In this document: in pieces, positions 343 through 30,551 of the stretch
Layout of the letters: each line of letters starts with the position of its first letter
Numbering within the stretch: the stretch's first letter is position 1
Assembly: GCA_016933055.1 (NCBI GenBank)
Contig: JAFGBS010000009.1
Coordinates: forward strand, 600,001-632,000
DNA from: Promethearchaeota archaeon
Lineage (GTDB): Archaea > Asgardarchaeota > Lokiarchaeia > Sigyniarchaeales > Promethearchaeaceae
Direction: 5' to 3'
Length of the DNA stretch: 32,000 nt
Notes under the pieces: generated by a model
What the model was told of the DNA's origin: nothing
What the model saw: the letters and a program-made list of their open reading frames with translations, nothing else
The model's database searches: none
Translations under genes and position numbers: made by a program

Positions 343-1272
343 ATGTCTGAAAAAAACGATATGACGGGATGGATCCTTTTCAAAAGAAAGTCTGAAACTA
401 CTCCAGGTTGGGGATCTTATGCCGTAAATAGATTAATGGATGTAGCACCTTCCCGAAACATTTCCCTTAAAGTAATTTCCCCCGATAATTTTGATCTTAT
501 TATTACCCGAGAGAAAAAGACCACATGGATAAATCAACAAGTTGAAAAAATTCCTGATTTTGTCATAACCAGAGTAGGTTCTGGTGCAAGTTATTTTTCT
601 CTTGCAATAATTCGACATTTAGAACGGTTAGGAGTACATACCTTTAATTGCTCAAAGGGAATAGATATCGTTCGGGATAAATTATATGCCCAACAAGTTT
701 TGGTTCAAAGCAACCTTCCTGTTCCAAAAACAATTCTAGTAAAATTCCCGGTGAACATCGATTTAGTAGAAAGATATCTAGGTTTTCCCGTAATAGTAAA
801 AACTGTATTCGGTTCTAAAGGAGCTGGAGTATTTCTATCGGAAGACAGAAGATCATTCGTCGATCTGATGCAGCTTTTAGAAGCAACTAAACCTAATGTG
901 AATATCATCCTTCAAGAAACAATTACCACTAGTCTTGGAAAAGATTTGCGAGTTTTTGTAGTTGGTGGAAAAATAATAGGATGTATGCAAAGAACCAGTA
1001 AAACTGACAGCTTTAAAGCAAATTTCTCCGCAGGGGCAGATGTAGAGGCATATCCTATCAATTCTGAAATCGAATGGCTAGCAAGACAAAGCGCACGAAC
1101 TTTATCATTGGATATTGCGGGAATTGATCTCTTATTTGATGGGGAGCATTTTAAAATATGTGAGGTCAATGCATCCCCTGGATTTAATGGTCTTGAGCAA
1201 GCAAATCCAGGATTAAATGTTCCCAATGAAATATTTGATTACATATCCTTGCGATTGGGAGAGTTTGATTAA
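343..1272 (+). CDS. RimK/LysX-family ATP-grasp amino acid (alpha-L-glutamate-type) ligase
   Basis: Motifs PDFVITRVGS, RDKL...LPVPKT, FPVIVKTVFGSKGAGV, ILQE, DLRVFVVGG, FKANFSAG, GIDLL and CEVNASPGF are typical of RimK-family ATP-grasp enzymes. Alternative start at 361. Confidence 0.9.
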   Translation: MSEKNDMTGWILFKRKSETTPGWGSYAVNRLMDVAPSRNISLKVISPDNFDLIITREKKTTWINQQVEKIPDFVITRVGSGASYFSLAIIRHLERLGVHTFNCSKGIDIVRDKLYAQQVLVQSNLPVPKTILVKFPVNIDLVERYLGFPVIVKTVFGSKGAGVFLSEDRRSFVDLMQLLEATKPNVNIILQETITTSLGKDLRVFVVGGKIIGCMQRTSKTDSFKANFSAGADVEAYPINSEIEWLARQSARTLSLDIAGIDLLFDGEHFKICEVNASPGFNGLEQANPGLNVPNEIFDYISLRLGEFD

Positions 1273-1274
1273 AA

Positions 1275-3128
1275 TTGAAATTTCAATCCTCACCTAAAAT
1301 ATATCAAAATTTTAAGAGTGCGACACCAGAGAATACCCTAAAAAGCCTAACAAATTGTATGCAGCCCTATTTTTTACCACACATGCAATTTCGAGTAAAA
1401 CCTAATTTATATGGCACCGCATGGGGTGCTCAAATGACTTTATTTGGGAATTATGATTATAATGTGAGATCTAATGGAAAGGGAGACACTCCACACTTGG
1501 CAATCTTGAGTGCCCTGGCAGAATTCACTGAGCGAGTTCAGAGTTTTTTACCTTTTCCAATTGCGAATTATCTGCCGCGACTAATGTTAAAACCAGATTT
1601 GGATAAAAATCATCCAGAATATCAAAAATGGGTGGACTTCAATAAAATTTTGAAAAATGAAACGAATAATAAAACTCCCGCTTTTGAACCTTTTGATACC
1701 ACATTTTACAAATTTTACGATGTTATTGAGAACAAGGAGATATACTTGGATCAATCATTCCTTATTTCTCCTAGTAATGGTCGAGCTGCAGGAAATACAT
1801 ATGAAGAAGCAGTAGTAATGGCGATCACTGAAGTCTTCGAACGATATACGACCAGAATGGTTTTATTGAATAATGAAGCTGTCCCCACAATTTCTCTTGA
1901 ATTTTTATCGAATGATCTTCAGGAATATATCAATTCCATAACAAAGGATGATTTCGAGGTATATATCAAAGATTTTTCATTGGGTAAAGGTTTTCCCGTG
2001 GTGGGTATGTTATTCGGCACTTCTGATGTGGGTTATGTATTGAAATCGAGCTCCGATTTATCTTTGAACCGTGCAGTTTCGCGGTGCTTAGGAGATTTTT
2101 TCCAGAATTTCGATTCAGTTCCGCACCGTTTAACGAATGCCGCAAAAAAATCACATACAATGATTCAATATTATGAACAATTCCGGGAGATATTAGAATC
2201 AGAAGTTTCATTACAAGAGCTAAAAGCTAATCGTTTTTCCAGTGACTCTGTATATTCACCAAAGGAACTTGGGTTTTTAGCACAAGATACAGATTTTGAT
2301 TTTGAAACATGGGATTATAGTCATAATGATTTTTATAACGAACTCCTACAATTAATTGAGTTTTATAAATTGAATAAATACCGTCTTTATGTCCGTGATT
2401 TGGGCTGGTTAGGTTTTCCTACTGTCATGGTTTACTCTCCAGATCTTCAACAATATAAATTTTCAATTTACGATCGTGTAGCTTTTTTTGATAAACGAGT
2501 TTTTCCTGGAGAAAAAGTTCGAAAATTCCGAAAAGCGTTATTACAAGATGAAAAGGCAATATTTCATCCCACTATTTTAGATATATTACGAGATCCCACT
2601 TTTCTGTACTTATTTATATTCAAACGCCCAGAATCTGTAGGAATAATGAGAGGATTACCTCATGTGGGAACCCAATTATCTAGTTTTAATGCATGGTATT
2701 TTCTTGGATTATTAGCATTTTATTTTAAAGACATTCATCTTTCTCAAAAATATTTTAGTTGTTTATTAATTGATGAACCAAAAAATGATTTTGCCAAGTG
2801 TGCAATTGAATATTTGAGCTCTCTACCTACAAATGCATGGAGTGGAAATCGAATTGATCCTCAAGTAATAAGAGAAGTTACTGTTAGTCTCACTCATTTT
2901 CCGAAAGAATTACTAGTAGGCGTACTGGATACACTTTCATCAACACAAACTGTGAAAGAAATATTGCAACCTTTGATTGTACCTTGTCCATATTATGAAA
3001 CCACTTGTGTGGGTTGTGAACATAAAGATTATTGTACTTACGGCAAGTTATCTCCCATCCTGCAAAAGTTAGTTAAGGATAAACCAGATAAATTATATTT
3101 TTTTACCGATCCTCTAAGTTCTCCATAA
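1275..3128 (+). CDS. YcaO-domain protein with C-terminal TPR-like helices and a 4-Cys cluster
   Basis: YcaO ATP/Mg motifs NGKGDTPHLAILSALAEFTER and SNGRAAGNTYEEAVVMAITEVFER; C-terminal CPYYETTCVGCEHKDYC. TTG start 2 nt after the RimK-like stop. Confidence 0.88.
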   Translation: MKFQSSPKIYQNFKSATPENTLKSLTNCMQPYFLPHMQFRVKPNLYGTAWGAQMTLFGNYDYNVRSNGKGDTPHLAILSALAEFTERVQSFLPFPIANYLPRLMLKPDLDKNHPEYQKWVDFNKILKNETNNKTPAFEPFDTTFYKFYDVIENKEIYLDQSFLISPSNGRAAGNTYEEAVVMAITEVFERYTTRMVLLNNEAVPTISLEFLSNDLQEYINSITKDDFEVYIKDFSLGKGFPVVGMLFGTSDVGYVLKSSSDLSLNRAVSRCLGDFFQNFDSVPHRLTNAAKKSHTMIQYYEQFREILESEVSLQELKANRFSSDSVYSPKELGFLAQDTDFDFETWDYSHNDFYNELLQLIEFYKLNKYRLYVRDLGWLGFPTVMVYSPDLQQYKFSIYDRVAFFDKRVFPGEKVRKFRKALLQDEKAIFHPTILDILRDPTFLYLFIFKRPESVGIMRGLPHVGTQLSSFNAWYFLGLLAFYFKDIHLSQKYFSCLLIDEPKNDFAKCAIEYLSSLPTNAWSGNRIDPQVIREVTVSLTHFPKELLVGVLDTLSSTQTVKEILQPLIVPCPYYETTCVGCEHKDYCTYGKLSPILQKLVKDKPDKLYFFTDPLSSP

Positions 3129-12006: not shown

Positions 12007-12552
12007 TCATGCTCCTTTCTCCTTTTCAATTTCTTCCATGATCACATTAATGATTTCCACTAAAATTCTCCGCTGTTCCTGATTTATCGCAGTGATACCA
12101 TAAGTGGGTACTTGAAGGACATCTTTAACCATTTTTGGATTTAGGTGCCCATCCAAGTCTTGTTTATTAGCAAGAGCGACAATTTTTGCACAGTCGTCTG
12201 GAAACAAATTTTTTGTATGGCTTACTAGTTCTTTTGTACTAAGAACGTTTTTGGGAGAAGAGTCGGTAACAATAAACACAATATCTGAACCTTCTATATA
12301 TTGGCTCATGTAATGTTTTAGATATGCTTTTTGTCCTCCAAAATCCCAAATTTTTAATTTAAATCCTTCAAAATCTAGTGTTCCCAAATCAAAACCTTGA
12401 GTTGGATTATATTTTTTTTCGATATTTTTCTGCGTAAGGAGTTTCATCAGTGTAGTTTTTCCCACTGCGGGAGAACCCACAAAGGAAATTTTTCCTACCG
12501 CGGGACGTGTTTTTACTTTAGGGATGTCCAGTGGGTTTTCATCAATTGTCAT
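12007..12552 (-). CDS. Small GTPase, Arf/Rag-like Ras superfamily (Asgard type)
   Basis: G1 GSPAVGKTT, G2 PTQG, G3 WDFGGQ, G4 NKQD, G5 TAI. Likely start ATG 12552 (MTIDENP), giving 181 aa. Confidence 0.92.
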   Translation of the reverse strand: MTIDENPLDIPKVKTRPAVGKISFVGSPAVGKTTLMKLLTQKNIEKKYNPTQGFDLGTLDFEGFKLKIWDFGGQKAYLKHYMSQYIEGSDIVFIVTDSSPKNVLSTKELVSHTKNLFPDDCAKIVALANKQDLDGHLNPKMVKDVLQVPTYGITAINQEQRRILVEIINVIMEEIEKEKGA

Positions 12553-12703
12553 CTTATCTTCTCTCGGAACAAGTAGTATGAAGAAAGAAAAAACGAAAAG
12601 TAATTTCATTTCTGGTAACATGGAGATATTACTCGGATATATCACATGAAATAACAAAAATCTCACAAAATACTTAATAGAACACAAGCTGAAAATTGAA
12701 TAC

Positions 12704-13288
12704 ATGGAGCTAGTAAAATCGAAATCTACGTTGCAAATGGCTATTACAGGAGAAACTGAAGCTATTGTTAAATATGATGCATATTCTAAGAAAGCGAAAG
12801 ATGAGGGTCTGCCAAATATAGCCTATCTGTTTGATGCATTAGTCCAAGCCGAACAAATTCATAATCGGAACCATTATAATGCTCTAAAGTCAGTATCCGA
12901 AGTCCAATTTACTCCTACGATCCCTCCCAAAATCCATGTTGGCTCTACTTTGCAAAATCTGCAAGATTCAATTAAGGGAGAACAATACGAATCCAAAAAT
13001 ATGTATCCTGATTTCATAAAAGAGATACGTGATGAATTAAGGGAAGAAAATGGACGTGTTGCTAAATTGTCCTTTGCATGGGCAGAAGAAGTAGAATTGG
13101 GACATGCAGATGCTTTGAAAATTGCACTTAAAGCGTTAGAGAGTGGGCATGATCTTGATGTACAAGCTATATTCGTTTGTAGAGTATGTGGGAATTTGGT
13201 ATTTAACGAACCTGAAGAATTTTGTTCAGTGTGTGGTCATGATCAACGCTTCTTCATGAAAATCAATAGGTCTGGAGATGAGAAATAA
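12704..13288 (+). CDS. rbr: Rubrerythrin
   Basis: Di-iron motifs GETEA...AEQIH and GEQYE...EVELGH; C-terminal rubredoxin-like CRVC...CSVCG. Confidence 0.93.
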   Translation: MELVKSKSTLQMAITGETEAIVKYDAYSKKAKDEGLPNIAYLFDALVQAEQIHNRNHYNALKSVSEVQFTPTIPPKIHVGSTLQNLQDSIKGEQYESKNMYPDFIKEIRDELREENGRVAKLSFAWAEEVELGHADALKIALKALESGHDLDVQAIFVCRVCGNLVFNEPEEFCSVCGHDQRFFMKINRSGDEK

Positions 13289-13998
13289 TGTCATATGAAG
13301 ATAGATTTCATCTTAGCGGCGGAGAAATAATTCGTCAAATCACATTCGGATTAAATGATGGTATCGTTTCAATCTTTGCTTTATTAGCTGGAATTTATGG
13401 ATCTGGACAAGATGATAAGGTAATATTAATCACGTTACTAGCTGCTGCAGTTGCTGGGGCCCTTTCTATGGCTGCGGGAGAGTTTATTAGTGGAAAAGGT
13501 GAACGAGATTATTATAATCACGAAATAGATCAAGAACGTCTCGAGATAAAACTCTGTCCAGATATTGAAAAAGAGGAAATCCGTTTTATTTACCAAGACA
13601 AAGGGTTCTCTGGAGAGATCTTAGATACTATTGTAAACCATATTACTTCAGATCGAGATTTGTGGGTAAGAGAAATGGTGATTTCTGAGCTTGGCGTTAC
13701 AGAGGTGGAGGATGCAAAAACTGGGATTAGAAATTCTATCGTAATCTTTTTTACTTTTATCTTGGGCTCATTATTTCCTACACTCCCTTATTTGATTCTT
13801 TTACCCTTTACCGTTAATCCGTTCACTAAGTTCATCATTGCAACGATTATTACATTTGGAGGTTTATTTCTTGCAGGTGCGCTGAAAAAATTCGTTACGG
13901 GCAAGAATTGGATAAAAAGTGGTCTGGAAATGTTACTTGTAGGTGCATTCGCATTCTCAGTTTCTTATTTTATCGGATTGGCAATCGAGTTATTGTAA
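13288..13998 (+). CDS. VIT1/CCC1 family Fe/Mn transporter
   Basis: FGLNDGIVS, AGALSMAAGEF, acidic cytoplasmic domain (EIDQERLEI...EKEEI...MVISELG) and about 5 TMs. Start overlaps the rubrerythrin stop (TAATG). Confidence 0.95.
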   Translation: MSYEDRFHLSGGEIIRQITFGLNDGIVSIFALLAGIYGSGQDDKVILITLLAAAVAGALSMAAGEFISGKGERDYYNHEIDQERLEIKLCPDIEKEEIRFIYQDKGFSGEILDTIVNHITSDRDLWVREMVISELGVTEVEDAKTGIRNSIVIFFTFILGSLFPTLPYLILLPFTVNPFTKFIIATIITFGGLFLAGALKKFVTGKNWIKSGLEMLLVGAFAFSVSYFIGLAIELL

Positions 13999-16257: not shown

Positions 16258-17565
16258 TTATTTCTTTTGTTTAGAAAATAATCGATCCAACCACTTTACC
16301 GTTCTATTCCAATATCTTAATAAGCGAGTTTCTCTTCTGCGACAGACATCCACTCCGTTTTTAAACACTTGAAATGGATTAAATAATAAATACAAGTCTT
16401 CTAAGGGATTTTCTCGGAACACAATAAAGTCTGCATATTTTCCGGGATTTAAAGAACCAATATTCTCCTCTTCTCCAAGAATAATCGCATTATTAATGGT
16501 TGCACATTGTATGGCTTCCATAGGAGTTAATCCATAAGTTTCATGAAGAAGTATTATTTCTTGAGCAAGTTTCCCATGTAAGACAAGGGGAATACCCGCA
16601 TCATCCCCTACCCCTATGATAATTCCTCGTTTTATCGCACGACGTAGACCGATTTCCACTTCCCTATCAATACGAATGGAATTCAAATATTCAATATGAG
16701 TTAGTTTTGCATCAGATAACGAATAAGCAAGACCTGAAGATAGGGTGGGTATCGTTCCAATGTTTTTTTCTTTCATTTTATTTAGTATATCCTCTGTATA
16801 ATCTGCACCATGCTCAATACTATCTATACCAGCTTCAACGCATCTTCGAGCTCCTTCTAATCCTTCTGCATGAGCCGTAACTCGTAAACCTGCTTTATGA
16901 GCGGTATTCACAATGGCTTTTAGTACTTCTATTGAAAAAAGAGGTTTACCCGCCTGTCCAAGTTCCTTAGCGCCTGTTACACCTCCAGTGGATAAAACTT
17001 TTATGCAATCCACTCCTTGTCTGACTAAATATTCCGTAATTTCCGTAGCTTCGGCAATTTCATCATTAATTTGAACGTCGAATACATCAATATGTTCCCC
17101 CCGTTTCGCAATAATCTTTCCAGATGTAAATAATCGGGGCCCTATTAACTCCCCTGACTTAATTTTGTCCCTTATTTCCAGAATATTGAAATATGCTTCC
17201 CCTAAACTGCGCACTGATGTGATTCCTTTTTTCAAACTTGCGTATGCATTATTTCGCATAGATTTTTGGATAAATCTTTGAAACCACGGTTGTTTTCGTA
17301 ACCATGCAAATAAAATCGGTCGATCCAAAAACTTTGGCATAGGAGTTCCTGATCCACTCAAGTGAACATGATTGTTAATAAGGCCGGGGATAACATACTG
17401 ACCTTTTAGATCAATTTCGGGGATGTGATCGGTGGCAGGAATCGGATCTTGCTGAATTTTTTGTATTTTTCCTTTGTTTACAACCATTGATACCCCGCAT
17501 TGGATCTCCCCTTTTTCAGGATCGACATAACTAAAATTAGAAAATATGCATTGAGAAGATTCCAT
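16258..17565 (-). CDS. Metal-dependent amidohydrolase (Xaa-Pro dipeptidase/imidazolonepropionase-like TIM barrel)
   Basis: PGLINNHVHL, DCIKV, AHAEG, IEHG, GDDAG, GSLNPGKYAD. Likely start ATG 17565. Confidence 0.9.
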   Translation of the reverse strand: MESSQCIFSNFSYVDPEKGEIQCGVSMVVNKGKIQKIQQDPIPATDHIPEIDLKGQYVIPGLINNHVHLSGSGTPMPKFLDRPILFAWLRKQPWFQRFIQKSMRNNAYASLKKGITSVRSLGEAYFNILEIRDKIKSGELIGPRLFTSGKIIAKRGEHIDVFDVQINDEIAEATEITEYLVRQGVDCIKVLSTGGVTGAKELGQAGKPLFSIEVLKAIVNTAHKAGLRVTAHAEGLEGARRCVEAGIDSIEHGADYTEDILNKMKEKNIGTIPTLSSGLAYSLSDAKLTHIEYLNSIRIDREVEIGLRRAIKRGIIIGVGDDAGIPLVLHGKLAQEIILLHETYGLTPMEAIQCATINNAIILGEEENIGSLNPGKYADFIVFRENPLEDLYLLFNPFQVFKNGVDVCRRRETRLLRYWNRTVKWLDRLFSKQKK

Positions 17566-17652
17566 TTTATTATCTCGGCGATCAATCGTTAAAAGCATTA
17601 GGTGAAAGAGAGCATTAAAACCATGACGCCTAAGTATTCACTCCCTCTTAAA

Positions 17653-17759
17653 ATAGGTCGAAAACCTATCGATTTGTCAAATCAATTAAATACTCTTTTG
17701 AGTATTTATACCGAAATACTAAGATCGAATCCGATAAATTCCAATTTATTATGACGTCA
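17653..17759. promoter_or_regulatory. Cluster of five dyad-symmetric elements upstream of the amidohydrolase-E1 operon
   Basis: ATAGGT-CGAAA-ACCTAT (17653-69), GATTTG-T-CAAATC (17671-83), TAAATACTC-TTTT-GAGTATTTA (17687-708), ATAAATT-CC-AATTTAT (17734-49) and TGACGTCA (17752-59). The dyads are seen directly; the regulatory role is inferred. Confidence 0.4.
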
Positions 17760-17896
17760 ACATCTATCCCGTGATATCTAAAAATTTTCCCTTAGGTGAA
17801 CAGAGGGTATAAAGGGTGAAGTTCTGTCTATTTGGAGTAAAATCAATATATACATACCTAATGCTACGCATTCGGCTTTTGTTTTAGAACACTTAC

Positions 17897-17938
17897 CCTC
17901 CCAAGAATCCGCACATACCTCCCAGGAACCCACACCTA
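17897..17938. repeat. Imperfect 2 x 21-bp tandem repeat
   Basis: CCTCCCAAGAATCCGCACATA / CCTCCCAGGAACCCACACCTA, 17 of 21 positions identical; GC-rich island in an AT-rich spacer. Confidence 0.8.
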
Positions 17939-18154
17939 GGACCGACCTCTTCTACATCTGATCGGTGTATTTAAACGAACCATAATATGTTATCAATCGT
18001 GTTACCTATCCATTCTAATGAAAAATCACAGTTTGATTCTGATTTATACATATCACGCTGCTTTATGATAGTTTTCAGTAAAATCGTTTATGTAATCGTT
18101 GGATAGGGCAGAATAGATGTTGACAGGTCAAAAAATAGAATATAGAGAAAAAAA

Positions 18155-19447
18155 TTATTGTTTTCGATCCAATTTGAGTTTCTTTATTAACAATATCCCT
18201 GGAATCAACGACAGTACTAACGCAATTGCACTTAATTGCATTGCAACGGGATATCTTATACCAGCACCAATCAATTGAGCAATAATTAATGTACCGATGG
18301 ATAGCTGTCCTAAATTAGACATCGAATTGTACCAATTGTACATCGTACCTGTAAGACTACCACGAGAGACTTTAGCAGAATATTCCATGGAAATTCGCAT
18401 TTGAGAAGTTTCATATCCTCCGTTTATTGCACCTAATAGTAATACAAGTAAATATAGTACTGTTGGAAACGACAATTCTGGGGCACCTAATGCTTCAAAG
18501 TCGATCCAAAGGAAAGACAAAATAAATCCGGTATAAACTATAGCATTGATTACAAATACCCACAATAAATTCAATTTCTGACCTAATCCCCCAATACTCA
18601 AGGCTCCAATCAGTTGTCCAACGGAAAAGAAAACCAACCCCCATCCAATAGTACCAACTCCAGCTGTTTCAATATCTAAGTCTAAAACTTCACTCATAAA
18701 CGTAACCATAACAGATACAAGAGCTATCCCCATACCACTGATAAAATCGAATAAAGTAACATGCCACGTAACACCTTTACGAAATTCTCTTCCAAAATCA
18801 GCTAAGTATACTTTCGGAATATTATCTGCTTCCTTTATTAAAAGTGCGGACATGATTCCGACGACTGCAAATATTCCTATTATAAGATAAGAATATCTCC
18901 ATCCTAGTTGATTACCCCATACTCCTAAAAACACACCAGATAGAATCGCCCCCCCACCTCTTGCACCCCATGCGACTCCTTGCATCCAACCACGTCGGTT
19001 AGGGGGTGTAACATCAACTCCTAGTGAGTCTAATACGGTATCTCCTAATGCTACACTTCCAGTTACAAACATTCCAATTAATATTATGCTCCAGTGAGGA
19101 CTTGTGTACATAGGAAGACTGATCCAACCAATGATTCCGATTAAACCCGCAATTAAAATATAAGGCTTTCGACGACCGAATTTTCCGACTTTAACAGTGT
19201 CAGAAAGTATACCAAATACAATTTTAATCAACCACGGAATAAATATGATACTTTGAATAGTTAGAGCCTCATCCTCAAGGTAACCCAGAGTTTGTAAAAA
19301 TGGTGCAATTAATAGAATAGCGGCAAAAGCAGCACCTTGGGAAAAATAAAACAAAAATTGAACAAATAGATACCAATCTTTCCAGGTAGAAAAATCCAAA
19401 TCTTCCTTTAAGTCATCTGGTATCTGTTTTTCCATAAAATCTGACAT
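18155..19447 (-). CDS. Major facilitator superfamily transporter (AmpG/BT1-like)
   Basis: About 12 TMs; PWLIKIVFGILSD...GRRKPY and DTVLDSLGVDV...RRGWMQG motifs. Confidence 0.9.
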   Translation of the reverse strand: MSDFMEKQIPDDLKEDLDFSTWKDWYLFVQFLFYFSQGAAFAAILLIAPFLQTLGYLEDEALTIQSIIFIPWLIKIVFGILSDTVKVGKFGRRKPYILIAGLIGIIGWISLPMYTSPHWSIILIGMFVTGSVALGDTVLDSLGVDVTPPNRRGWMQGVAWGARGGGAILSGVFLGVWGNQLGWRYSYLIIGIFAVVGIMSALLIKEADNIPKVYLADFGREFRKGVTWHVTLFDFISGMGIALVSVMVTFMSEVLDLDIETAGVGTIGWGLVFFSVGQLIGALSIGGLGQKLNLLWVFVINAIVYTGFILSFLWIDFEALGAPELSFPTVLYLLVLLLGAINGGYETSQMRISMEYSAKVSRGSLTGTMYNWYNSMSNLGQLSIGTLIIAQLIGAGIRYPVAMQLSAIALVLSLIPGILLIKKLKLDRKQ

Positions 19448-19561: not shown

Positions 19562-20509
19562 ATGGAGATGAAATTTAGTATCCAAAATCTACAACCTCTA
19601 ACTAAAGATATTTTGGATAATGTTTACAAGTTGTATCAAGATAATGAACAGTTCTTCAGAATTACAAAAAGTGATTTTGAAAACCAGACTTTAGGAGATA
19701 CTTCTTTCAATCCTGAATTCTCACTCGTTTTGTATCCCAAGAAATCAGATAAACCAATAGCAGTTTTAGTGGGAGTTGTAAAAAAAGGATATATCAAAAA
19801 AAATCTAATAGTTAAAGTCTTTTTGGTCGATAGGGAATACAGACGTAAAGGTATCGGAACATGGATGTTTAAAGAGCTATTAAAAAGAGCTAGACAAAGT
19901 CTGAACATATTTTCATCTGTAACCTATGGATTCTCTCCTCCCCAATTTCTCCAACCAGGGGTAGATGTACGTCATACTTCTCTTCTTTTCTTCCTCCAAT
20001 CCATGGGATTAAAACGTAAGAAGTCCAGAAACAATTTGACGGTTCATATATCCAAGGATTTAACAGAACCCAAAACCTACAAATATGGATTCACTTTACA
20101 GAGAATTACACCGGAATTCTTTTCATCCACTTTAGAATTTGTGAAAAAAGGATTTTTTGCACCAACTTGGTCAGCGGAAGTAGAATTAACTTTCAATTTT
20201 GAAAAACCTACTACATTCATCGCCTTAGATGAGAATAAGAATGTAGTTGGATTCGCATCCCATAGCACATGTTTTTTCAGCTCGTTTGGTCCCACAGGTG
20301 TGTTGAAATCTCTTCGTGGGAAAGGTATTGGTGGAGAATTACTAAAATGGTGCCTTTGGGATATTAAAAACCAAGGATATGATACAAGCACGATCATGTA
20401 CGTTGTTGGTAATACTGTAGCATATTATTCAAAAACAGTTGGGGCTTTCATTCATCCCGTTCACATTCCTATGAGAGCAAGCATCCTCAAATGGAGAAAT
20501 TTGTATTGA
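19562..20509 (+). CDS. Tandem GNAT-family N-acetyltransferase
   Basis: Two acetyl-CoA motif A copies: VDREYRRKGIGT and GVLKSLRGKGIGG. Confidence 0.85.
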   Translation: MEMKFSIQNLQPLTKDILDNVYKLYQDNEQFFRITKSDFENQTLGDTSFNPEFSLVLYPKKSDKPIAVLVGVVKKGYIKKNLIVKVFLVDREYRRKGIGTWMFKELLKRARQSLNIFSSVTYGFSPPQFLQPGVDVRHTSLLFFLQSMGLKRKKSRNNLTVHISKDLTEPKTYKYGFTLQRITPEFFSSTLEFVKKGFFAPTWSAEVELTFNFEKPTTFIALDENKNVVGFASHSTCFFSSFGPTGVLKSLRGKGIGGELLKWCLWDIKNQGYDTSTIMYVVGNTVAYYSKTVGAFIHPVHIPMRASILKWRNLY

Positions 20510-20583: not shown

Positions 20584-23424
20584 ATGGCATTCTATAATTT
20601 AGAATTAGAAGAAATTTTTCATCGATTGAAGACGAATCCAAAAAATGGTTTGTCAAAACTAGAAGCTGAAGATCGCCTTATGCATGATGGTTATAATGAA
20701 TTACCAAAGCACAATCCAAAATTCTGGAAAGTGTATCTTGCTCCATTATTCAATTGGCTGATTGTGATTTACCTTATTGGAGCCATAATTTTGTTTATCT
20801 CGGGTTGGATCCAACCAGAAGAAAAAACTAGTTCGACTCTTTTATATTTTACATTAGCCGTGGTAGCCCTTAATTGCATAATCGCGGTTATCCAGCAATA
20901 TCGCGCAACCAAAAAATTAGAAGCACTAGAATTTCTTTCTGCCCCCACGGCGAAAGTTTTAAGAGAAGGTAATTTAAAGGTAATTTCCGCCAGAAAAATC
21001 GTGGTAGGAGATATCATCAATTTGGAACAAGGAGATAGGATTCCTGCAGATTGTAGAATTATCCAATCAGCAAATCTAGAAGTAGATGAATCACCTCTAA
21101 CGGGGGAAAGTAAAACTGTTTCAAAATCAGAAAATATACTAAACGGAGAAGCAATTCCGATTCAATCACAATCGAATATTATTTTTCTGGGCACATATAT
21201 AATATTAGGTCACGCTAAAGCCCTTGTAATTCGCACGGGTATATACAATGAGATAGGAAAAATATCGAAAGGTTTAGAATCTATTAATACGCGAGAAATC
21301 CAAATCCAGAAAACAATGAATAATTTTGGCAAATGGCTTGGTCTAATTGTAGGTGGTTTATGGGTTGTAACTTTAGTAATCATATGGACTACAACTGGTA
21401 AATTAAATATTTTCAAAAGTTTGAATTCAGCTATGGATATAATGCCAATCAATATTCCTCTTTTATCCACAATTATCCTCATAACGGGAGTTCTCACAAT
21501 GGCAACACGGGGTGTAATAATCCGTAATTTAACATCTGTTGATAGTTTAGGAAGAATAAGTGTGCTATGCGCTGATAAGACGGGTACGATTACTGAAGGA
21601 AAAATGATGATTCAATATGTTGTTACTCCTACTTCAACATTTTTTGTGACTGGAACGGGTTACAATCCTGCTGGCTCTATTTTCCTGCAGAAAGAAAATA
21701 AAAAACCCGAAAAAATAACCACATTAGAATCATTCCCTCAATTTCAACAGATCTTATTAGCCTCCAAATTAAATAGCAACGCTACTTTGGATAAAAAAGA
21801 ACAACGAATAAGAAAAACTATATTTGAACGTTGGGAGGTATTGGGATCACCCACGGAAGGTGCTATAACTACATTATATGAAAAAGTAGGCGGATTGCTT
21901 AATTCTAATATTTTAGAAGAATTTTCCTTCATAAAGGAATTTCCATTTGATCCTTCTATCAAACTCATGTCTAAATTATATAAATTGGATTCAGAATTCG
22001 TTCTATTTACAAAAGGTGCACCTGAAAAAATTATTAATCTTAGCTTATCAATATCACAAAGAGGAAATGTATCCACATTTTCGAACAATGGGAAAAAGGC
22101 AATCTTAAAACAAATCAATAAATATGCTGAGCGGGGATACCGCATACTCAGCATAGCTCAAAGAAGTTTTGATTATGAACCGGTTACGACATCACGTGAG
22201 GATATAGAAGCTAATTTAATATATCTTGGGTCTTTTATGATTTCGGATGTACCAAGGGAGGGAGTGAAAGAATCTATCCAAGTGAGTAGAAACGCAGGGA
22301 TCGATATAAAGATGATAACGGGTGATTCATTAGTTACCGCCAAATCAATTGCAAACCAGATTGGATTATCAATATCAAACTGCGATGGAATCGACATGCA
22401 AACCGATTCACCCTTAGACATCCAGCAATATAATGTATTTGCTCGAGTTTCTCCTTTTGATAAACATATGATTGTCACAAAATTGCAGGAGAATGCACGC
22501 ATCGTAGCGATGACAGGGGATGGTGTGAATGACGCGCTTGCTCTAAGTATTGCTGATGTTGGCATAGCTATGGGAATAAGAGGTACGGATGTGGCAAAAG
22601 AAGCGGCTGATATGATAATCGCAAATGATTCTTTCAATTCCATTATACATGGGATAGCAGAGGGTCGAGGGATTTTTGCGCGTATCCGAGCGGTTGTATT
22701 TTTTTATGTTGCAATTAATATATTCGAAGGATTAGTCCAATTTGTTTTAACCATTGTACTCGATTTACCCTATTTCTTAGATACGAATTTTTACTTGCAA
22801 TGGATATTTTTGTCCATTACTCTTCACACCATACCCGGATTGATTTTGACCTTTGATATTGAAAATAAAGACGTAATGCAGGAAAAACCAAGAGATTCTG
22901 AAGAAATATTATCGAAAAATATCACCATCTTGATGCTGAGCTATGGGTTTTTACTTGCAATTAGCATCTGCTTGGTTTATTTTCTATCTATAACTCGCAC
23001 TATTCCCATTAACGCATTCAATATAGGAAGTCAATATTTTCCCTATTTTAATCAAAATATCGAGTTACAATTTCAAGGGAAAACCCTCACAATGCTTATG
23101 GTAGTTCTGTATTTTTGTGAATCAATCCTTGTTTTCCAAATTCGCAGAATAAATAAATCGATTATTAGGACCTTGAAAGAGGATAGTAAATTGTGGATGT
23201 ACATGTTGATTGGTGTGCTTTTTGCGATCTTTCTTTCATTGATGTACATTCCAAGGTTACAGATCTCGCTGGCGGAATTAAAAATAGGAGATTTAAGCCT
23301 TAATTTTAGGTTTATGCGATTAAACGGGTGGGATTGGTTAATATGCGCTGGAATCGCATGCATCAGTGTTATGGGATTCGAGATTGCGAAATATTTATTT
23401 CGAAAAAAAGGAATTATCTTTTAA
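20584..23424 (+). CDS. P-type ATPase, P2A-like scaffold with non-canonical ion-binding sites
   Basis: DESPLTGES, DKTGT (D331), KGAPE, MITGD, FARVSP, TGDGVNDA; about 10 TMs. TM4 reads MPINIP instead of IPEGLP. Confidence 0.95.
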   Translation: MAFYNLELEEIFHRLKTNPKNGLSKLEAEDRLMHDGYNELPKHNPKFWKVYLAPLFNWLIVIYLIGAIILFISGWIQPEEKTSSTLLYFTLAVVALNCIIAVIQQYRATKKLEALEFLSAPTAKVLREGNLKVISARKIVVGDIINLEQGDRIPADCRIIQSANLEVDESPLTGESKTVSKSENILNGEAIPIQSQSNIIFLGTYIILGHAKALVIRTGIYNEIGKISKGLESINTREIQIQKTMNNFGKWLGLIVGGLWVVTLVIIWTTTGKLNIFKSLNSAMDIMPINIPLLSTIILITGVLTMATRGVIIRNLTSVDSLGRISVLCADKTGTITEGKMMIQYVVTPTSTFFVTGTGYNPAGSIFLQKENKKPEKITTLESFPQFQQILLASKLNSNATLDKKEQRIRKTIFERWEVLGSPTEGAITTLYEKVGGLLNSNILEEFSFIKEFPFDPSIKLMSKLYKLDSEFVLFTKGAPEKIINLSLSISQRGNVSTFSNNGKKAILKQINKYAERGYRILSIAQRSFDYEPVTTSREDIEANLIYLGSFMISDVPREGVKESIQVSRNAGIDIKMITGDSLVTAKSIANQIGLSISNCDGIDMQTDSPLDIQQYNVFARVSPFDKHMIVTKLQENARIVAMTGDGVNDALALSIADVGIAMGIRGTDVAKEAADMIIANDSFNSIIHGIAEGRGIFARIRAVVFFYVAINIFEGLVQFVLTIVLDLPYFLDTNFYLQWIFLSITLHTIPGLILTFDIENKDVMQEKPRDSEEILSKNITILMLSYGFLLAISICLVYFLSITRTIPINAFNIGSQYFPYFNQNIELQFQGKTLTMLMVVLYFCESILVFQIRRINKSIIRTLKEDSKLWMYMLIGVLFAIFLSLMYIPRLQISLAELKIGDLSLNFRFMRLNGWDWLICAGIACISVMGFEIAKYLFRKKGIIF

Positions 23425-23833
23425 ATTTTAAATCCACTGCTTTATTTGCAAGTTCATCAGCTTGAGAATTTTTTTCCCGCTTAATATGAGTGAAGGTCAC
23501 CTTTTCGAAGCCCGACGATAATGAACGAACATTTTCCATGAGTAATTTCAATTCGTGATTTTTCACAGAATATATTCCGCTCATCTGCTTCACTAACAGT
23601 TCAGAATCACTATACACATGAACAACACCACGACAAATCTTCAAACATTTAGATAGCCCTATGAGTAAAGCACCATATTCTGCTTGATTGTTTGTATAGT
23701 TATTTCCTAAAAATTTATATCCAGTTTCAATGATAACTCCATTCATATCGGTAATAACAAATCCTGCCCCAGCTGGTCCGGGATTACCTCTTGCACATCC
23801 ATCTGTGTACAATTTTATTTCTTTTTTATTCAT
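23414..23833 (-). CDS. rnhA: Ribonuclease HI family protein
   Basis: YTDGCARGNPGPAGAG, TNNQAEY, SDSELLVKQM, HIKREKNSQADELAN. Start ATG 23833, 13 nt after the asnS stop. Confidence 0.92.
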   Translation of the reverse strand: MNKKEIKLYTDGCARGNPGPAGAGFVITDMNGVIIETGYKFLGNNYTNNQAEYGALLIGLSKCLKICRGVVHVYSDSELLVKQMSGIYSVKNHELKLLMENVRSLSSGFEKVTFTHIKREKNSQADELANKAVDLKFKR

Positions 23834-23846
23834 AGGGATCAGATCT

Positions 23847-25142
23847 TTATGGTGTTTTTCGTAACATAGTTCGGGGAAACGGGATTGCATCTTTTATGCT
23901 ATCGATCCCGCATATCCATGATACTACGCGTTCCAATCCAACTCCGTAACCAGAATGAGGAACAGAACCATATTTCCGTAAATCAAAATACCAATCGTAA
24001 TTTTGGGGATCTTCTCCCTCAGCTTTCAGACGTTCCATCATGTTATCCACTAATAAACTCCGTTCGGATCCACCAACAATTTCACAATATCCTTCAGGTG
24101 CTAACATGTCAAAGCATAAAGCTTCTTTAGGATTTTCTGGACTAGGTGGTTTATAAAATCCCATAATATCAGTGGGATAATGCGTAACCACAACAGGACA
24201 TTGAAAATGTTCAGCGATTTTTGCTTCTTCTAAGGTGCGTAAATCTTTTCCCCAAGGTACATCCATCACATATTCTTCATTCAACAGTTTTAAAGCGTCT
24301 GCGTACTTAATAGTTGGATACTTAACTTTTGCATATTTCTCGAGCAGCTTGATATCCCTTTCCAAGATTTCCAAGTCTTGTTTATTATCTCGAAGCACTC
24401 TTTTTAGTATGAACCTAATTTCGTCTTTTGCTAGTTGTACTGCTCCATCTAACTTCATCCATGCTGCTTCCATTTCACACATCCAGAATTCTGTGAGATG
24501 ACGAGATGTTTTTGACTTTTCAGCCCGAAATGTAGGTCCTACATTATATATTTTTCCTAGGGCGAAGATCCCTGCCTCTGCATACAATTGCCAGGATTGG
24601 GATAAATAGACTTTGTCTTTAAAATATTTTACTTCAAACAATGTAGCTCCCCCTTCACTCATACTGGGTTGGAATACCGGAGCATCGAATTCATAAAATC
24701 CTCTTTTTCGGAAGAAGTCGTGGATTGCACCTACAACAGTATGGCGAATTTTGAGAATCGCAGTCATTCTCCGAGATCTCAGCCATAAATGTCGATTATC
24801 AAGTAAAAATTCAGTAGATTGATCTTGGGTAATCGGAAATGGTTCTGCTATTTGAAAGATGTTTAATTCCTTTACCTGAATCTCATAACCTGTAGGAGCA
24901 CGTTCATCCTCTTTTATCACCCCAGACAATTCAATTGAAGATTCTATCGTTAACTTTACTGCCTCTTCATATATCTCTGGACTTTTTTCTTTCTTAATCA
25001 CACATTGGATGATATCCGATTCATCTCGGACAACAATAAATACGAATTTATTAGAAGCCCTCTGCCTATAGACCCATCCTCTGATGTGTACATCTCCAGT
25101 TCCTTTTTTCATGGCATCCTTGATTGTGATAAACTTTTTCAT
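23847..25142 (-). CDS. asnS: Asparagine--tRNA ligase (archaeal type)
   Basis: OB-fold IRGWV, RHLWLRS, YLSQSWQLY, motif 2 FRAEKSKTSRHLTEFW, motif 3 PHSGYGVGLER. Confidence 0.92.
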   Translation of the reverse strand: MKKFITIKDAMKKGTGDVHIRGWVYRQRASNKFVFIVVRDESDIIQCVIKKEKSPEIYEEAVKLTIESSIELSGVIKEDERAPTGYEIQVKELNIFQIAEPFPITQDQSTEFLLDNRHLWLRSRRMTAILKIRHTVVGAIHDFFRKRGFYEFDAPVFQPSMSEGGATLFEVKYFKDKVYLSQSWQLYAEAGIFALGKIYNVGPTFRAEKSKTSRHLTEFWMCEMEAAWMKLDGAVQLAKDEIRFILKRVLRDNKQDLEILERDIKLLEKYAKVKYPTIKYADALKLLNEEYVMDVPWGKDLRTLEEAKIAEHFQCPVVVTHYPTDIMGFYKPPSPENPKEALCFDMLAPEGYCEIVGGSERSLLVDNMMERLKAEGEDPQNYDWYFDLRKYGSVPHSGYGVGLERVVSWICGIDSIKDAIPFPRTMLRKTP

Positions 25143-25286: not shown

Positions 25287-26270
25287 ATGACTAGCGAATA
25301 TGTAGTAAAAGAGTATCATAAAAAAAATATCATTTACAAGCATCTTCATTTGGGCACCAATTTACCCGTTCTAGATTCTTTTAGGAAGTATATATATCGG
25401 GAAATTGACCAGATGGGATGTTTTTCTATAGTGCTCAAAGATTCTAATTCTGAAGAAGTTTTGGGACATACTATGCTATTTAAATGGGAAGATAAATTGT
25501 ATTTTGCGTTTTTTTATGCTAAAGAAGTATCATTTAAAAATGCAAAACGCCTAATTACCGAAATCGAAAGTAAAGCAAGACAATTAAATTGCAAAATGGT
25601 TTTAGGTCCCGTAAATTTGCCGCCATATATTTACGGTTTTGGATTTTCTGAAGAAGGAAGCGATACATCTATATTCGCAATGGCTCCAACAACTGACCCT
25701 GCCTATATTGATCATTTTAGAAAATTAGATTATCAATCTCCTCAAAAATTTTTACACTTCCGGGCTCCTTTACGACCAGTTCCGTACGAGAAAAAGTATG
25801 ATATTCGTTTTGCAGATCTAAGAAATCCAGCTGAATGGAAGGATAAATTTTTAGAACTTCAATACAGATTATATCCTTCGCAAATTCAAATCACTCCTAA
25901 TCAAGCTTATTTATTTGATGATATTCTAGAATTTTTAAATGAATTTTCTAATAACGATTCAGTATTTTTGATATATAATGATGACGGGAACTTGATAGGA
26001 ATAGGATGGGGTTCTCCCAATCCCTTTGATCTAAACGATAATGGGAAAACTAGGAGTTATGTTCTATTTGGAGCAGCAGTTGAAAAAGAATATCAAAAAC
26101 AAGGGATACTAACTGAAGTCTTTAAGTTATGTGGAAATCATTTCACTCAACAAGGTGTAACTTATGGGGAGGGATTTACTAATGAAGAAAACATCGCATC
26201 CATACGGTTATTTAAAAGTTGGGGTGCAGAGCACACGAGAACTCATGTCTTAATGATAAAACAAATCTAA
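25287..26270 (+). CDS. GNAT-superfamily protein (YghO-like)
   Basis: VLGPVNLPPYIYGFGF...DPAYIDHF segment and C-terminal AAVEKEYQKQGI...NEENIASIRL. Confidence 0.65.
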   Translation: MTSEYVVKEYHKKNIIYKHLHLGTNLPVLDSFRKYIYREIDQMGCFSIVLKDSNSEEVLGHTMLFKWEDKLYFAFFYAKEVSFKNAKRLITEIESKARQLNCKMVLGPVNLPPYIYGFGFSEEGSDTSIFAMAPTTDPAYIDHFRKLDYQSPQKFLHFRAPLRPVPYEKKYDIRFADLRNPAEWKDKFLELQYRLYPSQIQITPNQAYLFDDILEFLNEFSNNDSVFLIYNDDGNLIGIGWGSPNPFDLNDNGKTRSYVLFGAAVEKEYQKQGILTEVFKLCGNHFTQQGVTYGEGFTNEENIASIRLFKSWGAEHTRTHVLMIKQI

Positions 26271-28196: not shown

Positions 28197-30551
28197 ATGC
28201 CATGTATGTATTGCGGTTCTACTACGATTGCATATTCTTGTGAGAAATGCGGTAATCAATTCTGTTCGGATCATGTGATCACAACCGAGTATTATAGTTG
28301 TAAGAAACATGGGATAAAATACACTACTGCTCAAGCTGAACAATCTGATTATCGTTGTACTCTTATTCCAAAAAGTTCCTGTCCCGACTGTTCGAAAGAA
28401 TTAACCATTGATAAGTTACCATCTGGTCAATATTTTCTTAACTGTCCTAGTTGCTCTTGGGATTCTTTCAATGGAACTCCGAAAATCCATTATATCACAA
28501 AAAAATTAGTATTTGACGAAGGTTCTCGATCAGGATTGATTCAAAGACCTGAAGAATGTGGATTAAAATTGAAGATCAACCAAGGAGTCCAGATTTGCTC
28601 TAATTGTTTCATTCAATCCTTAGAAAGTGGTGGTGTAACATCATTCGCCACTATTAAAAATATATACAATATCGATACTCGTACGATTGTGCGAATTATA
28701 AATAAATTAAAGAAAGACAAACTCATTACAGGACAAATCGACACGAAAAATCAAGTTTTCATTTATATACCCGATGATTCTCGAGCATATATAAATGATG
28801 AAATTCAAAAAAATGGAAAAATCTCAATGCTACAGATTGCAAACCGATTCAATGTTCCCGAGGACAATGGTTTAGAATTAATGTACGAAGTTTTGAAAGA
28901 ATTTGAAATTCATGGAACCTTTGACACAAAGAAAAAAAACTACTATAGTATAGATTTCCTGAACGAATATATTGTAAAAACCGTCGATGAGAAAGGCAGA
29001 GTCTCCATCCAAGAAATGAGTGATATATTGGGTACATCAGTAGATATCGTGAAATATTATGTAATTGAATTATTCAAGTCTCAGAAGTTGGATGCGTATT
29101 TTGCAGATAGCGGTAAACAAATTGTATCGAAAAATAAACTGAAATCTGAAGTAGAATCATATTGTAAAGAACACGGATTATTTAAGCTGACAGATGCTGC
29201 AAAACATTTCAACGTAGCTGTAGAACTCATTCGAAAATCTTTGGTCGCACTCATTAAAGAAAAACGTATTCGTGGATTATTTACACAGAAAAAAGAATTC
29301 ATAACAGAAGAAGAATTATCCAGCCGTATTAAGAGTGTCACCCGTGTTTATCGAACTATGAAATTGCGAGAACTAGCCTTAAAACTGGGAATAACAGAAT
29401 TAAGAGTTGAAGAAACTTTAGCCAGTTTGATTTCACGTGGAGCTATTTATGGATTTATTGACATGAATCGTCGAGAATTTGTCGCTGATAGACAACAACC
29501 TACAACAATGGGTCCCACAGTTATTCCTTTAGATGACACGACACAAACTACCGGTAGCGTGGAAGTACTGCGAGAATATGATTTTGTAGGGGGTCAACTA
29601 CACTTTAAAGTTGTGGTAAAAAACCACACAGATAAAGTCATCACTGACATCAAAATCATATTGGATGCGCCAAGTTCTTACAGGAAACAGAGTGATATCT
29701 TGAAAGTCTCAACCATTTCCCCGCACAATTCTAGAGGTATTGATTTTTATCTCGAGCCCGTAGAATGTGGTATCTCAACAATAGGGGGGACTGTGATCTA
29801 TAAAGATGCGACGGGAAAGCCTCACACTATTCATATTAGACCTAAAGAAGTTCAAATCAAATGTCCTTTAGTATCAAAAACTCTAGATACCATAGAGGAT
29901 TGCCAGATTACTATTCAAAATCTTCCAAGTGATGCACGAGCATTTTTGATAGCAGATCTGGATCCAAAACTCGCTTATCGTGCAGCATTTCGGGCTATTA
30001 CCAATTTTGATACTCGAAATGTCACCAGTTTGGAACTTTCTGATCCAGATGATTACAAGGCTGAAGCGTGGTTCTCGTCCGAAGCTAAGGTTACTGGTGG
30101 GCGCATCATCACTCGAATCGCCGTATCGGGGAAGAATCAGAGTTTAGAGATTCGCGTGTGGTGTAACGATCCTGGACAATTAACAGGATTTCTGGCTAAA
30201 ATCATTGAATTACTCTTCCTGGAAATTAATATCGTTAGGAAGGTAAAAGCAGAAGAACGTCAGCGCACCTTAGATGTAATGTCTATAACACAGAACCTAA
30301 TTACTGCTAGTGATTTTTGTGCTGTTAGATATAAAGCTAAGGATATATTATTAAAATTAGAAGATACGCATTATCGTATGTCACGTGTAGTGGGTAATAC
30401 AGATCCTACACTTGCTAAGATTCAGTATTGGATAGAAAAACTTCAGAAATATGACGAGGAAGAGAAAATCCAAGAGAAAGAAGCTGATTCGTTAATGAGT
30501 GATATTGAAGGCTTCCAAAACACCCTAGCTCGAAGTTTAGCACCCACATAA
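28197..30551 (+). CDS. Multidomain protein: AN1-type Zn finger and further Cys pairs, tandem PCI-like winged helices, beta-sandwich/platform C-terminus
   Basis: CMYC...CEKCGNQFCSDH; CPDC, CPSC, CSNC; repeated G-x-(I/F)-D/T...Y/F...helix-G(K/R)(I/V)S units; C-terminal LHFKVVVKN...IDFYLEPVECGISTIGGTVIYKD. Confidence 0.75.
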   Translation: MPCMYCGSTTIAYSCEKCGNQFCSDHVITTEYYSCKKHGIKYTTAQAEQSDYRCTLIPKSSCPDCSKELTIDKLPSGQYFLNCPSCSWDSFNGTPKIHYITKKLVFDEGSRSGLIQRPEECGLKLKINQGVQICSNCFIQSLESGGVTSFATIKNIYNIDTRTIVRIINKLKKDKLITGQIDTKNQVFIYIPDDSRAYINDEIQKNGKISMLQIANRFNVPEDNGLELMYEVLKEFEIHGTFDTKKKNYYSIDFLNEYIVKTVDEKGRVSIQEMSDILGTSVDIVKYYVIELFKSQKLDAYFADSGKQIVSKNKLKSEVESYCKEHGLFKLTDAAKHFNVAVELIRKSLVALIKEKRIRGLFTQKKEFITEEELSSRIKSVTRVYRTMKLRELALKLGITELRVEETLASLISRGAIYGFIDMNRREFVADRQQPTTMGPTVIPLDDTTQTTGSVEVLREYDFVGGQLHFKVVVKNHTDKVITDIKIILDAPSSYRKQSDILKVSTISPHNSRGIDFYLEPVECGISTIGGTVIYKDATGKPHTIHIRPKEVQIKCPLVSKTLDTIEDCQITIQNLPSDARAFLIADLDPKLAYRAAFRAITNFDTRNVTSLELSDPDDYKAEAWFSSEAKVTGGRIITRIAVSGKNQSLEIRVWCNDPGQLTGFLAKIIELLFLEINIVRKVKAEERQRTLDVMSITQNLITASDFCAVRYKAKDILLKLEDTHYRMSRVVGNTDPTLAKIQYWIEKLQKYDEEEKIQEKEADSLMSDIEGFQNTLARSLAPT

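Follow-up and report, generated by a model that had tools for sequence, protein, structure and literature searches.

What does a P-type ATPase transport when its catalytic motifs are complete and its membrane ion site has been rebuilt? The question is raised by a gene in a 32,000-nucleotide stretch of a Promethearchaeota archaeon genome (assembly GCA_016933055.1, contig JAFGBS010000009.1, positions 600,001 to 632,000), which is referred to below as the window. The pump gene, whose product is designated P0001, lies at positions 20584-23424 on the forward (+) strand; position numbers given without a contig or locus refer to the forward strand of the window. We found that its product belongs to a distinct, old and mostly Asgard-archaeal subfamily, which we named the PxN clade after the signature P-[ILVFW]-N-[ILF]-P in the fourth transmembrane helix (TM4). 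No description of this clade was found in the literature on Asgard P-type ATPases. Judging from the conserved residues described below, the PxN pump is probably a small-cation pump with one rebuilt site, a new subfamily rather than a SERCA-like Ca2+ pump.

The P0001 gene is complete. Its open frame codes for 946 residues, in which the Pfam domains Cation_ATPase_N, E1-E2_ATPase, Cation_ATPase, Hydrolase and Cation_ATPase_C follow in the usual order. The catalytic motifs, all on the + strand as the gene itself, comprise the A-domain phosphatase motif TGES (residues 173-176; 21100-21111), the phosphorylation motif DKTGT (residues 331-335; 21574-21588), the N-domain KGAPE (residues 477-481; 22012-22026), TGD (residues 579-581) and the P-domain hinge GDGVND (residues 645-650; 22516-22533). 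DKTGT, GDGVND and the first two residues of KGAPE (K477 and G478) are invariant in the clade. In the TGES motif, the 120 closest homologs have Thr in 119 cases and Ser in one at the first position, Gly and Glu in all 120 at the next two, and Ser in 119 cases and Ala in one at the last. These motifs, the E1-E2 Pfam domains and a score of 244.8 bits against a cut-off of 62.3 for the superfamily profile TIGR01494 place the protein in the P-type ATPase superfamily (HAD-IC). An earlier first-pass annotation, made from the sequence alone, had described the pump as intact rather than decayed; the open reading frame and the full set of catalytic motifs bear this out, and the motif positions that it gave are correct. 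With the catalytic engine and the ten-helix P2 fold intact, P0001 is expected to run the ordinary E1/E2 phosphoenzyme cycle.

The departures from known pumps concern the ion-site residues of the membrane helices. Below, these are compared with SERCA residues E309, N768, E771, N796, T799, D800 and E908, whose numbers we take from the established literature, the column equivalences having been computed here. TM4 reads MPINIP (residues 287-292; 21442-21459, +), with Ile289 in place of the ligand Glu (SERCA E309) and Asn290 in place of Gly. TM5 retains the site-I ligands in N712-I-F-E715 (22717-22728, +), which occupy the columns of SERCA N768/E771 and Na,K-ATPase N776/E779. In TM6, S744-I-T-L-H748 (22813-22827, +), the position of Asn796 has become variable, that of Thr799 hydrophobic and that of Asp800 an invariant His. 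TM8 contributes Glu846 (23119-23121, +) in the column of SERCA E908. Aligned by HMMER to human SPCA1, the P-I-N-I-P of P0001 matches P-E-G-L-P, and its Ser744 and His748 match the TM6 Asn and Asp. In the alignment to the non-gastric H,K-ATPase (ATP12A), N712 and E715 fall on its TM5 Asn and Glu, and S744 and H748 on its two TM6 Asp residues. For column counts we used a MAFFT alignment of 148 sequences, including 102 canonical PE-type pumps and 42 divergent clade representatives. The columns altered in P0001 are nearly uniform in the PE-type pumps (E in 102/102, N in 99/102, T in 95/102 and D in 97/102), as are the TM5 columns (N and E each in 97/102). E846 falls in a Q/E column, which holds Glu in 40 of the 42 clade representatives compared with only 40% of the PE-type pumps.

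Taken together, the Ca2+ ligands particular to site II have been lost (a hydrophobic residue replaces Glu309, and the Asn796 position varies) and the site-bridging Asp800 is an invariant His, whereas the site-I residues (TM5 Asn and Glu, TM8 Glu) are kept and an invariant TM4 Asn is added. The TM4 and TM6 substitutions and the retained N712, E715 and TM8 Glu, all reported in the first-pass annotation, are thus corroborated by the SPCA1, H,K-ATPase and MAFFT alignments. Its view that the ion-binding sites had been rebuilt and the cargo was non-canonical is also upheld: with site II dismantled, Ca2+ handling like that of SERCA or LMCA1 is very improbable.

The same annotation had held that its reading would fail if these substitutions were unique to one sequence and unconserved; they are conserved family-wide. 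The 120 best database matches are 50-69% identical to P0001, and every one of them has P-[IL]-N-[IL]-P. Their named sources are Promethearchaeota, Loki-, Thor-, Heimdall-, Odin- and Hodarchaeota. Residues Y51, P54, N97, Q104, Q105, N290, N712, E715, T746, H748, K833, E846, R854 and R855 show no variation among the 120. When 50%-identity representatives were searched exhaustively with HMMER, about 40 further clusters with P-x-N-x-[PVI] were added, down to 31-34% identity; the TM4 variants among these divergent clusters include MPINIP, IPINIV, IPFNFP and IPWNFP, and PEGLP types start only below them in the ranking. We therefore defined the PxN clade by TM4 P-[ILVFW]-N-[ILF]-[PVI], TM5 N..E, His at the D800 column of TM6 and the TM8 Glu. 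P0001 has all of these features and is nested inside the clade with 100% support. Across the 42 divergent representatives, N290 is kept in 39, N712 in 38, E715 in all 42, H748 in 41 and E846 in 40, so that the conservation is far removed from chance. A single lineage, P0144, has Ser at 290, Phe at 748 and Gln at 846, and such a joint loss fits three residues that would work as one site. The full residue set is also kept in both tandem PxN paralogs of a sister lineage.

P0001 does not fit any of the established subfamilies. It scored under every subfamily equivalog cut-off in NCBIfam: PMR1 (TIGR01522), 442.6 bits against 798.3; SERCA (TIGR01116), 397.3 against 703.4; P2D, 381 against 645; P2C, 337 against 946; P2B, 325.5 against 507; P3A (TIGR01647), 322.9 against 615.5; P3B, 279 against 611; P5 (TIGR01657), 211.3 against 618.25; and P4 (TIGR01652), 99.6 against 431.25. 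Segment by segment, its matches to the P4, P3A and P5 profiles were no better than those of a canonical PEGLP paralog from the same genome. The AF2 model of P0001 (predicted local distance difference test, pLDDT, 90.6; predicted template modeling score, pTM, 0.87) has the P2-type fold and domain order according to Foldseek. The top 50 matches were SPCA1, SERCA, H,K- and Na,K-ATPases (template modeling scores of 0.60-0.78), mostly in E2- or E2P-like states, and no P4 or P5 structure was among them.

The best matches by profile, sequence and fold are the P2A Ca2+-ATPases (SERCA, SPCA1/PMR1 and Listeria LMCA1). P2A pumps and P0001 have in common the domain order, ten transmembrane helices, TGES, the Cation_ATPase_N and Cation_ATPase_C domains, and the TM5 Asn/Glu and TM8 Glu of SERCA site I. 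Where SERCA and PMR1 have the PEGL Glu in TM4 and Asn/Asp in TM6, however, P0001 has I289, S744 and H748. Relative to P2A, TM4 Glu is replaced by Ile and Gly by Asn, and TM6 Asn has become variable, Thr hydrophobic and Asp a His. SPCA1 is the inverse case, in that it keeps site II without the TM5 Asn/Glu pair, whereas the PxN clade keeps site I. A recent review of P-type ATPases lists families P1-P6 and expects further prokaryotic ones (Palmgren 2023, PMC10654040).

Phylogenetic analysis recovered the PxN clade as monophyletic with FastTree (97), with a quick IQ-TREE run (100 in the Shimodaira-Hasegawa-like approximate likelihood ratio test, SH-aLRT) and in a careful LG+C20 analysis with posterior mean site frequencies (PMSF; 95/94, present in 96% of bootstrap trees). 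It is separated both from the P1B pumps of the source genome and from a joint clade of P3A and P3B (96/100). In the LG+C20 PMSF tree, the backbone that connects the PxN clade with P3 and with the PE-type P2 lineages forms a polytomy. Our best reading is that the PxN clade branches from the P2/P3 radiation and would be P2-derived.

P3A H+-ATPases (AHA2/Pma1 type) resemble the PxN clade in having a hydrophobic residue at the E309 position within a P-x-x-x-P TM4 (IPVA[MLQ]P and MPINIP, respectively), but they differ in a TM6 Asp and a TM5 Arg. Some of the P3A and P3B references were drawn from loci recovered via the universal DKTGT/GDGxND patterns, a search whose listed matches were PE-type bacterial pumps of about 30% identity and said nothing on the clade's distribution; the P3A references, which include archaeal and cyanobacterial members (L103, L118-L121), were verified by scores of >1000 bits on TIGR01647. 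A first approximately unbiased (AU) test, with only two P3A rows and the quick tree, did not reject PxN+P3A (p=0.66), the constrained tree scoring above the unconstrained one. Repeated with five P3A rows and a careful tree search, the test rejected an exclusive clade of PxN and P3A (log-likelihood difference 46, p-AU 0.0056). Because of this rejection, and because P3A pumps keep the TM6 Asp and the TM5 Arg, the resemblance is, on the evidence of trees and residues, convergent, the TM4 Glu having been lost independently in the two groups. P0001 is thus set apart from P3A by its score under the cut-off, by His where P3A has Asp and by the rejected exclusive clade. We also observed two P-type ATPases with unusual TM4 sequences, TPQLLP and LPNEFP (L108 and L109), near a bona fide P3A gene in Nodosilinea nodulosa PCC 7104 (G304:C1:5756512-5779087).

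The clade is widespread in Asgard archaea. A homolog at E<=1e-150 is present in 199 of 301 sampled Asgard genomes and in 69 of the 90 high-quality ones; among the same 301, none was found at this threshold in several small-genome families. The deepest branch, P0200, reads IPWSFP in TM4. Since the RFC gene on its contig clusters at >=90% with a 'Thermoplasmatota archaeon' protein, the base of the PxN clade, as far as this contig tells, is to be placed beyond Asgard, extending to Thermoplasmatota. The tandem paralogs mentioned above belong to a sister family (f2) of the same order. The two genes stand head to tail, their products are ~54% and ~42% identical to P0001, and both have the full N/N-E/H/E set; the pair is found at G252:C88:20423-26314 (L087 6991-12918) and at eight other sister-order loci, with ~150 nucleotides between the genes and a TFIIB-like gene pair upstream.

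The source genome (3.76 Mb, 91% complete) codes for six P-type ATPases: two of P1B type (CAC and CPH), one each with PEGLP, PEGLL and PSGLP in TM4, and P0001. The PSGLP protein is a second non-canonical P2-type pump (contig C2, ~16757-19270, -; locus L005), whose TM4, IPSGLP, has Ser where the ligand Glu would be and which groups with the PEGLL paralog on contig C15. Its first Met lies 121 codons into the open frame, and the upstream profile alignment crosses three stop codons; the L005 protein may be N-terminally truncated.

How would the PxN pump work? In the small-cation reading, one cation would bind at a site formed by Asn290, Asn712, Glu715, His748 and Glu846 and would then be exported by the ordinary E1/E2 cycle. 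Such a protein would be a single-site P2-derived pump, with Ca2+ site I kept and site II lost. His748 could coordinate the ion, act as a built-in counter-ion or do both, in line with what has been proposed for the invariant His in M6 of P1B-4 pumps. In these Co/Zn/Fe-pumping ATPases, with sCoaT as the precedent, the His lies next to a Glu and has been suggested to be an internal counter-ion and possibly a ligand (PMC8880997). P1B-4 metal pumps (sCoaT, CzcP and CtpD, with SPC and HEGxT motifs) and the PxN clade share an invariant membrane His beside a Glu, although the likeness is a functional analogy only. P1B-4 is another branch of the superfamily, with eight transmembrane helices and a CPC-type TM4, whereas PxN pumps are built like P2 pumps and lack a Cys ligand.

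As for the cargo, our single best guess, which we hold tentatively and at less than even confidence, is a divalent transition metal of the Mn2+/Fe2+/Zn2+/Co2+/Ni2+ class. A borderline divalent metal is plausible because two Glu, a His and two amide oxygens would make a textbook site and balance the charge. Ca2+ export, by comparison, would already be covered, since the same genome has the canonical PEGLP pump on contig C27.

Several points weigh against the picture of one rebuilt site that binds a metal. The placement of N290, N712, E715, H748 and E846 in one site is deduced by homology with P2 pumps of solved structure. Two P1B pumps and a VIT1 exporter are already encoded in the genome, and P0001 has no His- or Cys-rich tails. 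In the neighborhoods of the lineages that we examined, no shared transporter partner, metal regulator, chaperone or other conserved partner was found. Moreover, three TM1/TM2 columns that are acidic in 91-97% of the PE-type pumps are acidic in just 0-19% of the clade. We take these columns to be those of SERCA E90, E109 and E113. If they line access paths, their loss makes a case against a free divalent metal. The E109-column Glu is, however, retained in P3A and P3B pumps, so that the change in this column may not concern the access funnel.

The same acidic columns bear on the strongest competing proposal, an electrogenic H+ or Na+ export pump in which the protonated His748 would serve only as a built-in counter-ion and the cation would sit on Glu715, Asn712, Asn290 and Thr746. 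Its role would be housekeeping ion homeostasis or energizing of the membrane. We regard this as possible but doubtful. It gains from the loss of the acidic TM1/TM2 residues, from the lack of a metal context, from the housekeeping look of a pump that is near-universal, sometimes duplicated and outside any detoxification context, and from the E309 position, which is hydrophobic in the profile-verified P3A pumps as well. The His748 counter-ion would be likened to the Lys/Arg of KdpB, ZntA and P3A pumps; the principle of a built-in counter-ion has been reviewed (PMC10654040) and has been proposed for a His (PMC8880997). On the other hand, the TM6 Asp and TM5 Arg of P3A pumps are both absent from the PxN clade, and the P3A profile score and the AU test speak against a tie to P3A. 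In addition, His is no Na+ ligand. Asgard genomes also have rotary A-type ATPases, which would serve to energize the membrane. The fuller proposition, that the PxN clade is a new housekeeping subfamily of electrogenic H+/Na+ pumps with a His counter-ion, which would help to energize or ion-balance the Asgard membrane, seems to us unlikely.

It is quite unlikely that P0001 is still a Ca2+ (or Mg2+) pump with unconventional ligands, in which case the database name 'Ca2+-transporting ATPase' would be right. The nearest profiles and folds are indeed those of PMR1/SPCA1, SERCA and LMCA1, and the site-I ligands N768, E771 and E908 are kept. A further precedent is the P6 family (M. tuberculosis CtpE), a prokaryotic side branch of the Ca2+ pumps that, like the PxN clade, has no TM6 Asp and nevertheless moves Ca2+ (PMC10654040). 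The P6 pumps differ in keeping PEGL in TM4, in having Ile rather than His in TM6 and in their bacterial distribution. Against a Ca2+ or Mg2+ pump, none of E309, N796, T799 and D800 is kept, both ions are poorly coordinated by His, every Ca2+-ATPase equivalog cut-off is missed and the genome has its canonical PEGLP paralog.

Transport of an organic cation such as a polyamine, as in P5B pumps, is very unlikely. The TM4 Glu is missing in P0001 as in the P5B motif PPALP, and genes for GNAT acetyltransferases recur beside family members. Two GNAT genes on the + strand flank P0001, one upstream (19562-20509; ~320 residues with two GNAT domains) and one downstream (25287-26270; ~320 residues), and GNAT family F14 is found downstream at three sister-order loci. 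GNAT genes are abundant, however, and the association with the ATPase is weak and not conserved across orders; it may be a coincidence. The P5 score, no better than that of paralogs, and TM4 MPINIP instead of PP(E/A)LP place P0001 outside P5, and the TM6 Asp is absent as well. This comparison and the one with P4 rest on profiles, motifs and fold ranking.

The first-pass annotation had also called P0001 flippase-like and a possible precursor of a P2-to-P4 transition. P4 flippases have the TM4 motif P-I-S-L, in which, as in P-I-N-I, Ile at the gate position is followed by a small polar residue; they lack the second TM4 Pro and have a TM5 Lys. The A-domain criterion of P4 is DGET (PMC10654040). 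A lipid flippase or a pump for a bulky hydrophobic substrate, parallel to or a precursor of eukaryotic P4, is extremely improbable, even though P0001 resembles P4 in TM4 and cation-attracting acidic residues are lost: the A domain of P0001 has TGES where P4 has DGET, its TM5 has N712/E715 but no Lys, its P4 profile score is far under the cut-off, its fold matches are all P2 pumps, no P4-profile match at E<=1e-40 occurs in any of 151 sampled Asgard genomes, the invariant buried Glu/His/Glu/Asn set looks like an ion site and not a lipid groove, and a hydrophobic E309 position is not flippase-specific because P3A proton pumps have it too. A search for CDC50 (PF03381), run without a positive control, gave no match in the 91% complete source genome. 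Other cargoes, or no transport at all, take up the remainder of our expectation.

The genomic surroundings of the pump vary. Synteny of PxN genes is conserved only within orders and involves TFIIB-like, GNAT, DUF362, subtilase, M1 peptidase and winged-helix proteins. At three sister-order loci (L087, L089 and L100), a 181-residue GNAT lies directly downstream of the ATPase pair. In the window, an RNase H-like gene (RVT_3/RNase_H; 23414-23890, -) is convergent with the ATPase gene, the stop region of which it overlaps by 11 nucleotides with its 3' end. The VIT1/CCC1-family protein, a putative Fe2+/Mn2+ exporter (13288-13998, +; 204.7 bits), is coded 6.6 kb upstream of the ATPase and is not adjacent to it, though it forms part of the background to a metal cargo. 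Farther downstream, a 784-residue open reading frame (28197-30551, +) matches E3_UFM1_ligase, DDRGK and PCI/winged-helix domains and is VPS28-like at its C-terminus, a multi-winged-helix protein of the eukaryote-signature type. In another Asgard family, several genomes (loci L095, L096 and L099) code for a 655-residue protein with a weak E3_UFM1_ligase match right next to the PxN ATPase. The window also contains a gene for an Arf/Roc/Ras-like small GTPase of 232 residues (12007-12705, -), a typical Asgard eukaryotic-signature protein that agrees with the Asgard origin of the DNA. At 343-3128 (+), a RimK-type ATP-grasp gene is directly followed by a gene for a 617-residue YcaO-domain protein; the two may form a peptide-modification pair.

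These results have implications for how Asgard pumps are named and understood. In all databases, PxN proteins are called 'Ca2+-transporting' or 'cation-translocating' ATPases. A census of Asgard transporters reported that all five proteomes share a conserved 'putative Ca2+ ATPase', which it read as evidence for Ca2+ signaling (PMC7997004). If PxN members are not Ca2+ pumps, Ca2+ inferences based on annotation need checking, although the proteins of that census are not established as PxN members. The independent loss of the TM4 Glu, at least in the PxN clade and P3A, bears on the routes of substrate switching, including those toward P4 flippases. Should the PxN pump be a housekeeping H+ or Na+ pump, it would foreshadow in archaea the eukaryotic practice of powering the plasma membrane with P-type pumps. 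With its presence in about two thirds of the sampled Asgard genomes and a ligand set matched by no characterized P-type ATPase, the clade offers a testable case of a possible new transport specificity, built on the pump scaffold that is understood best.

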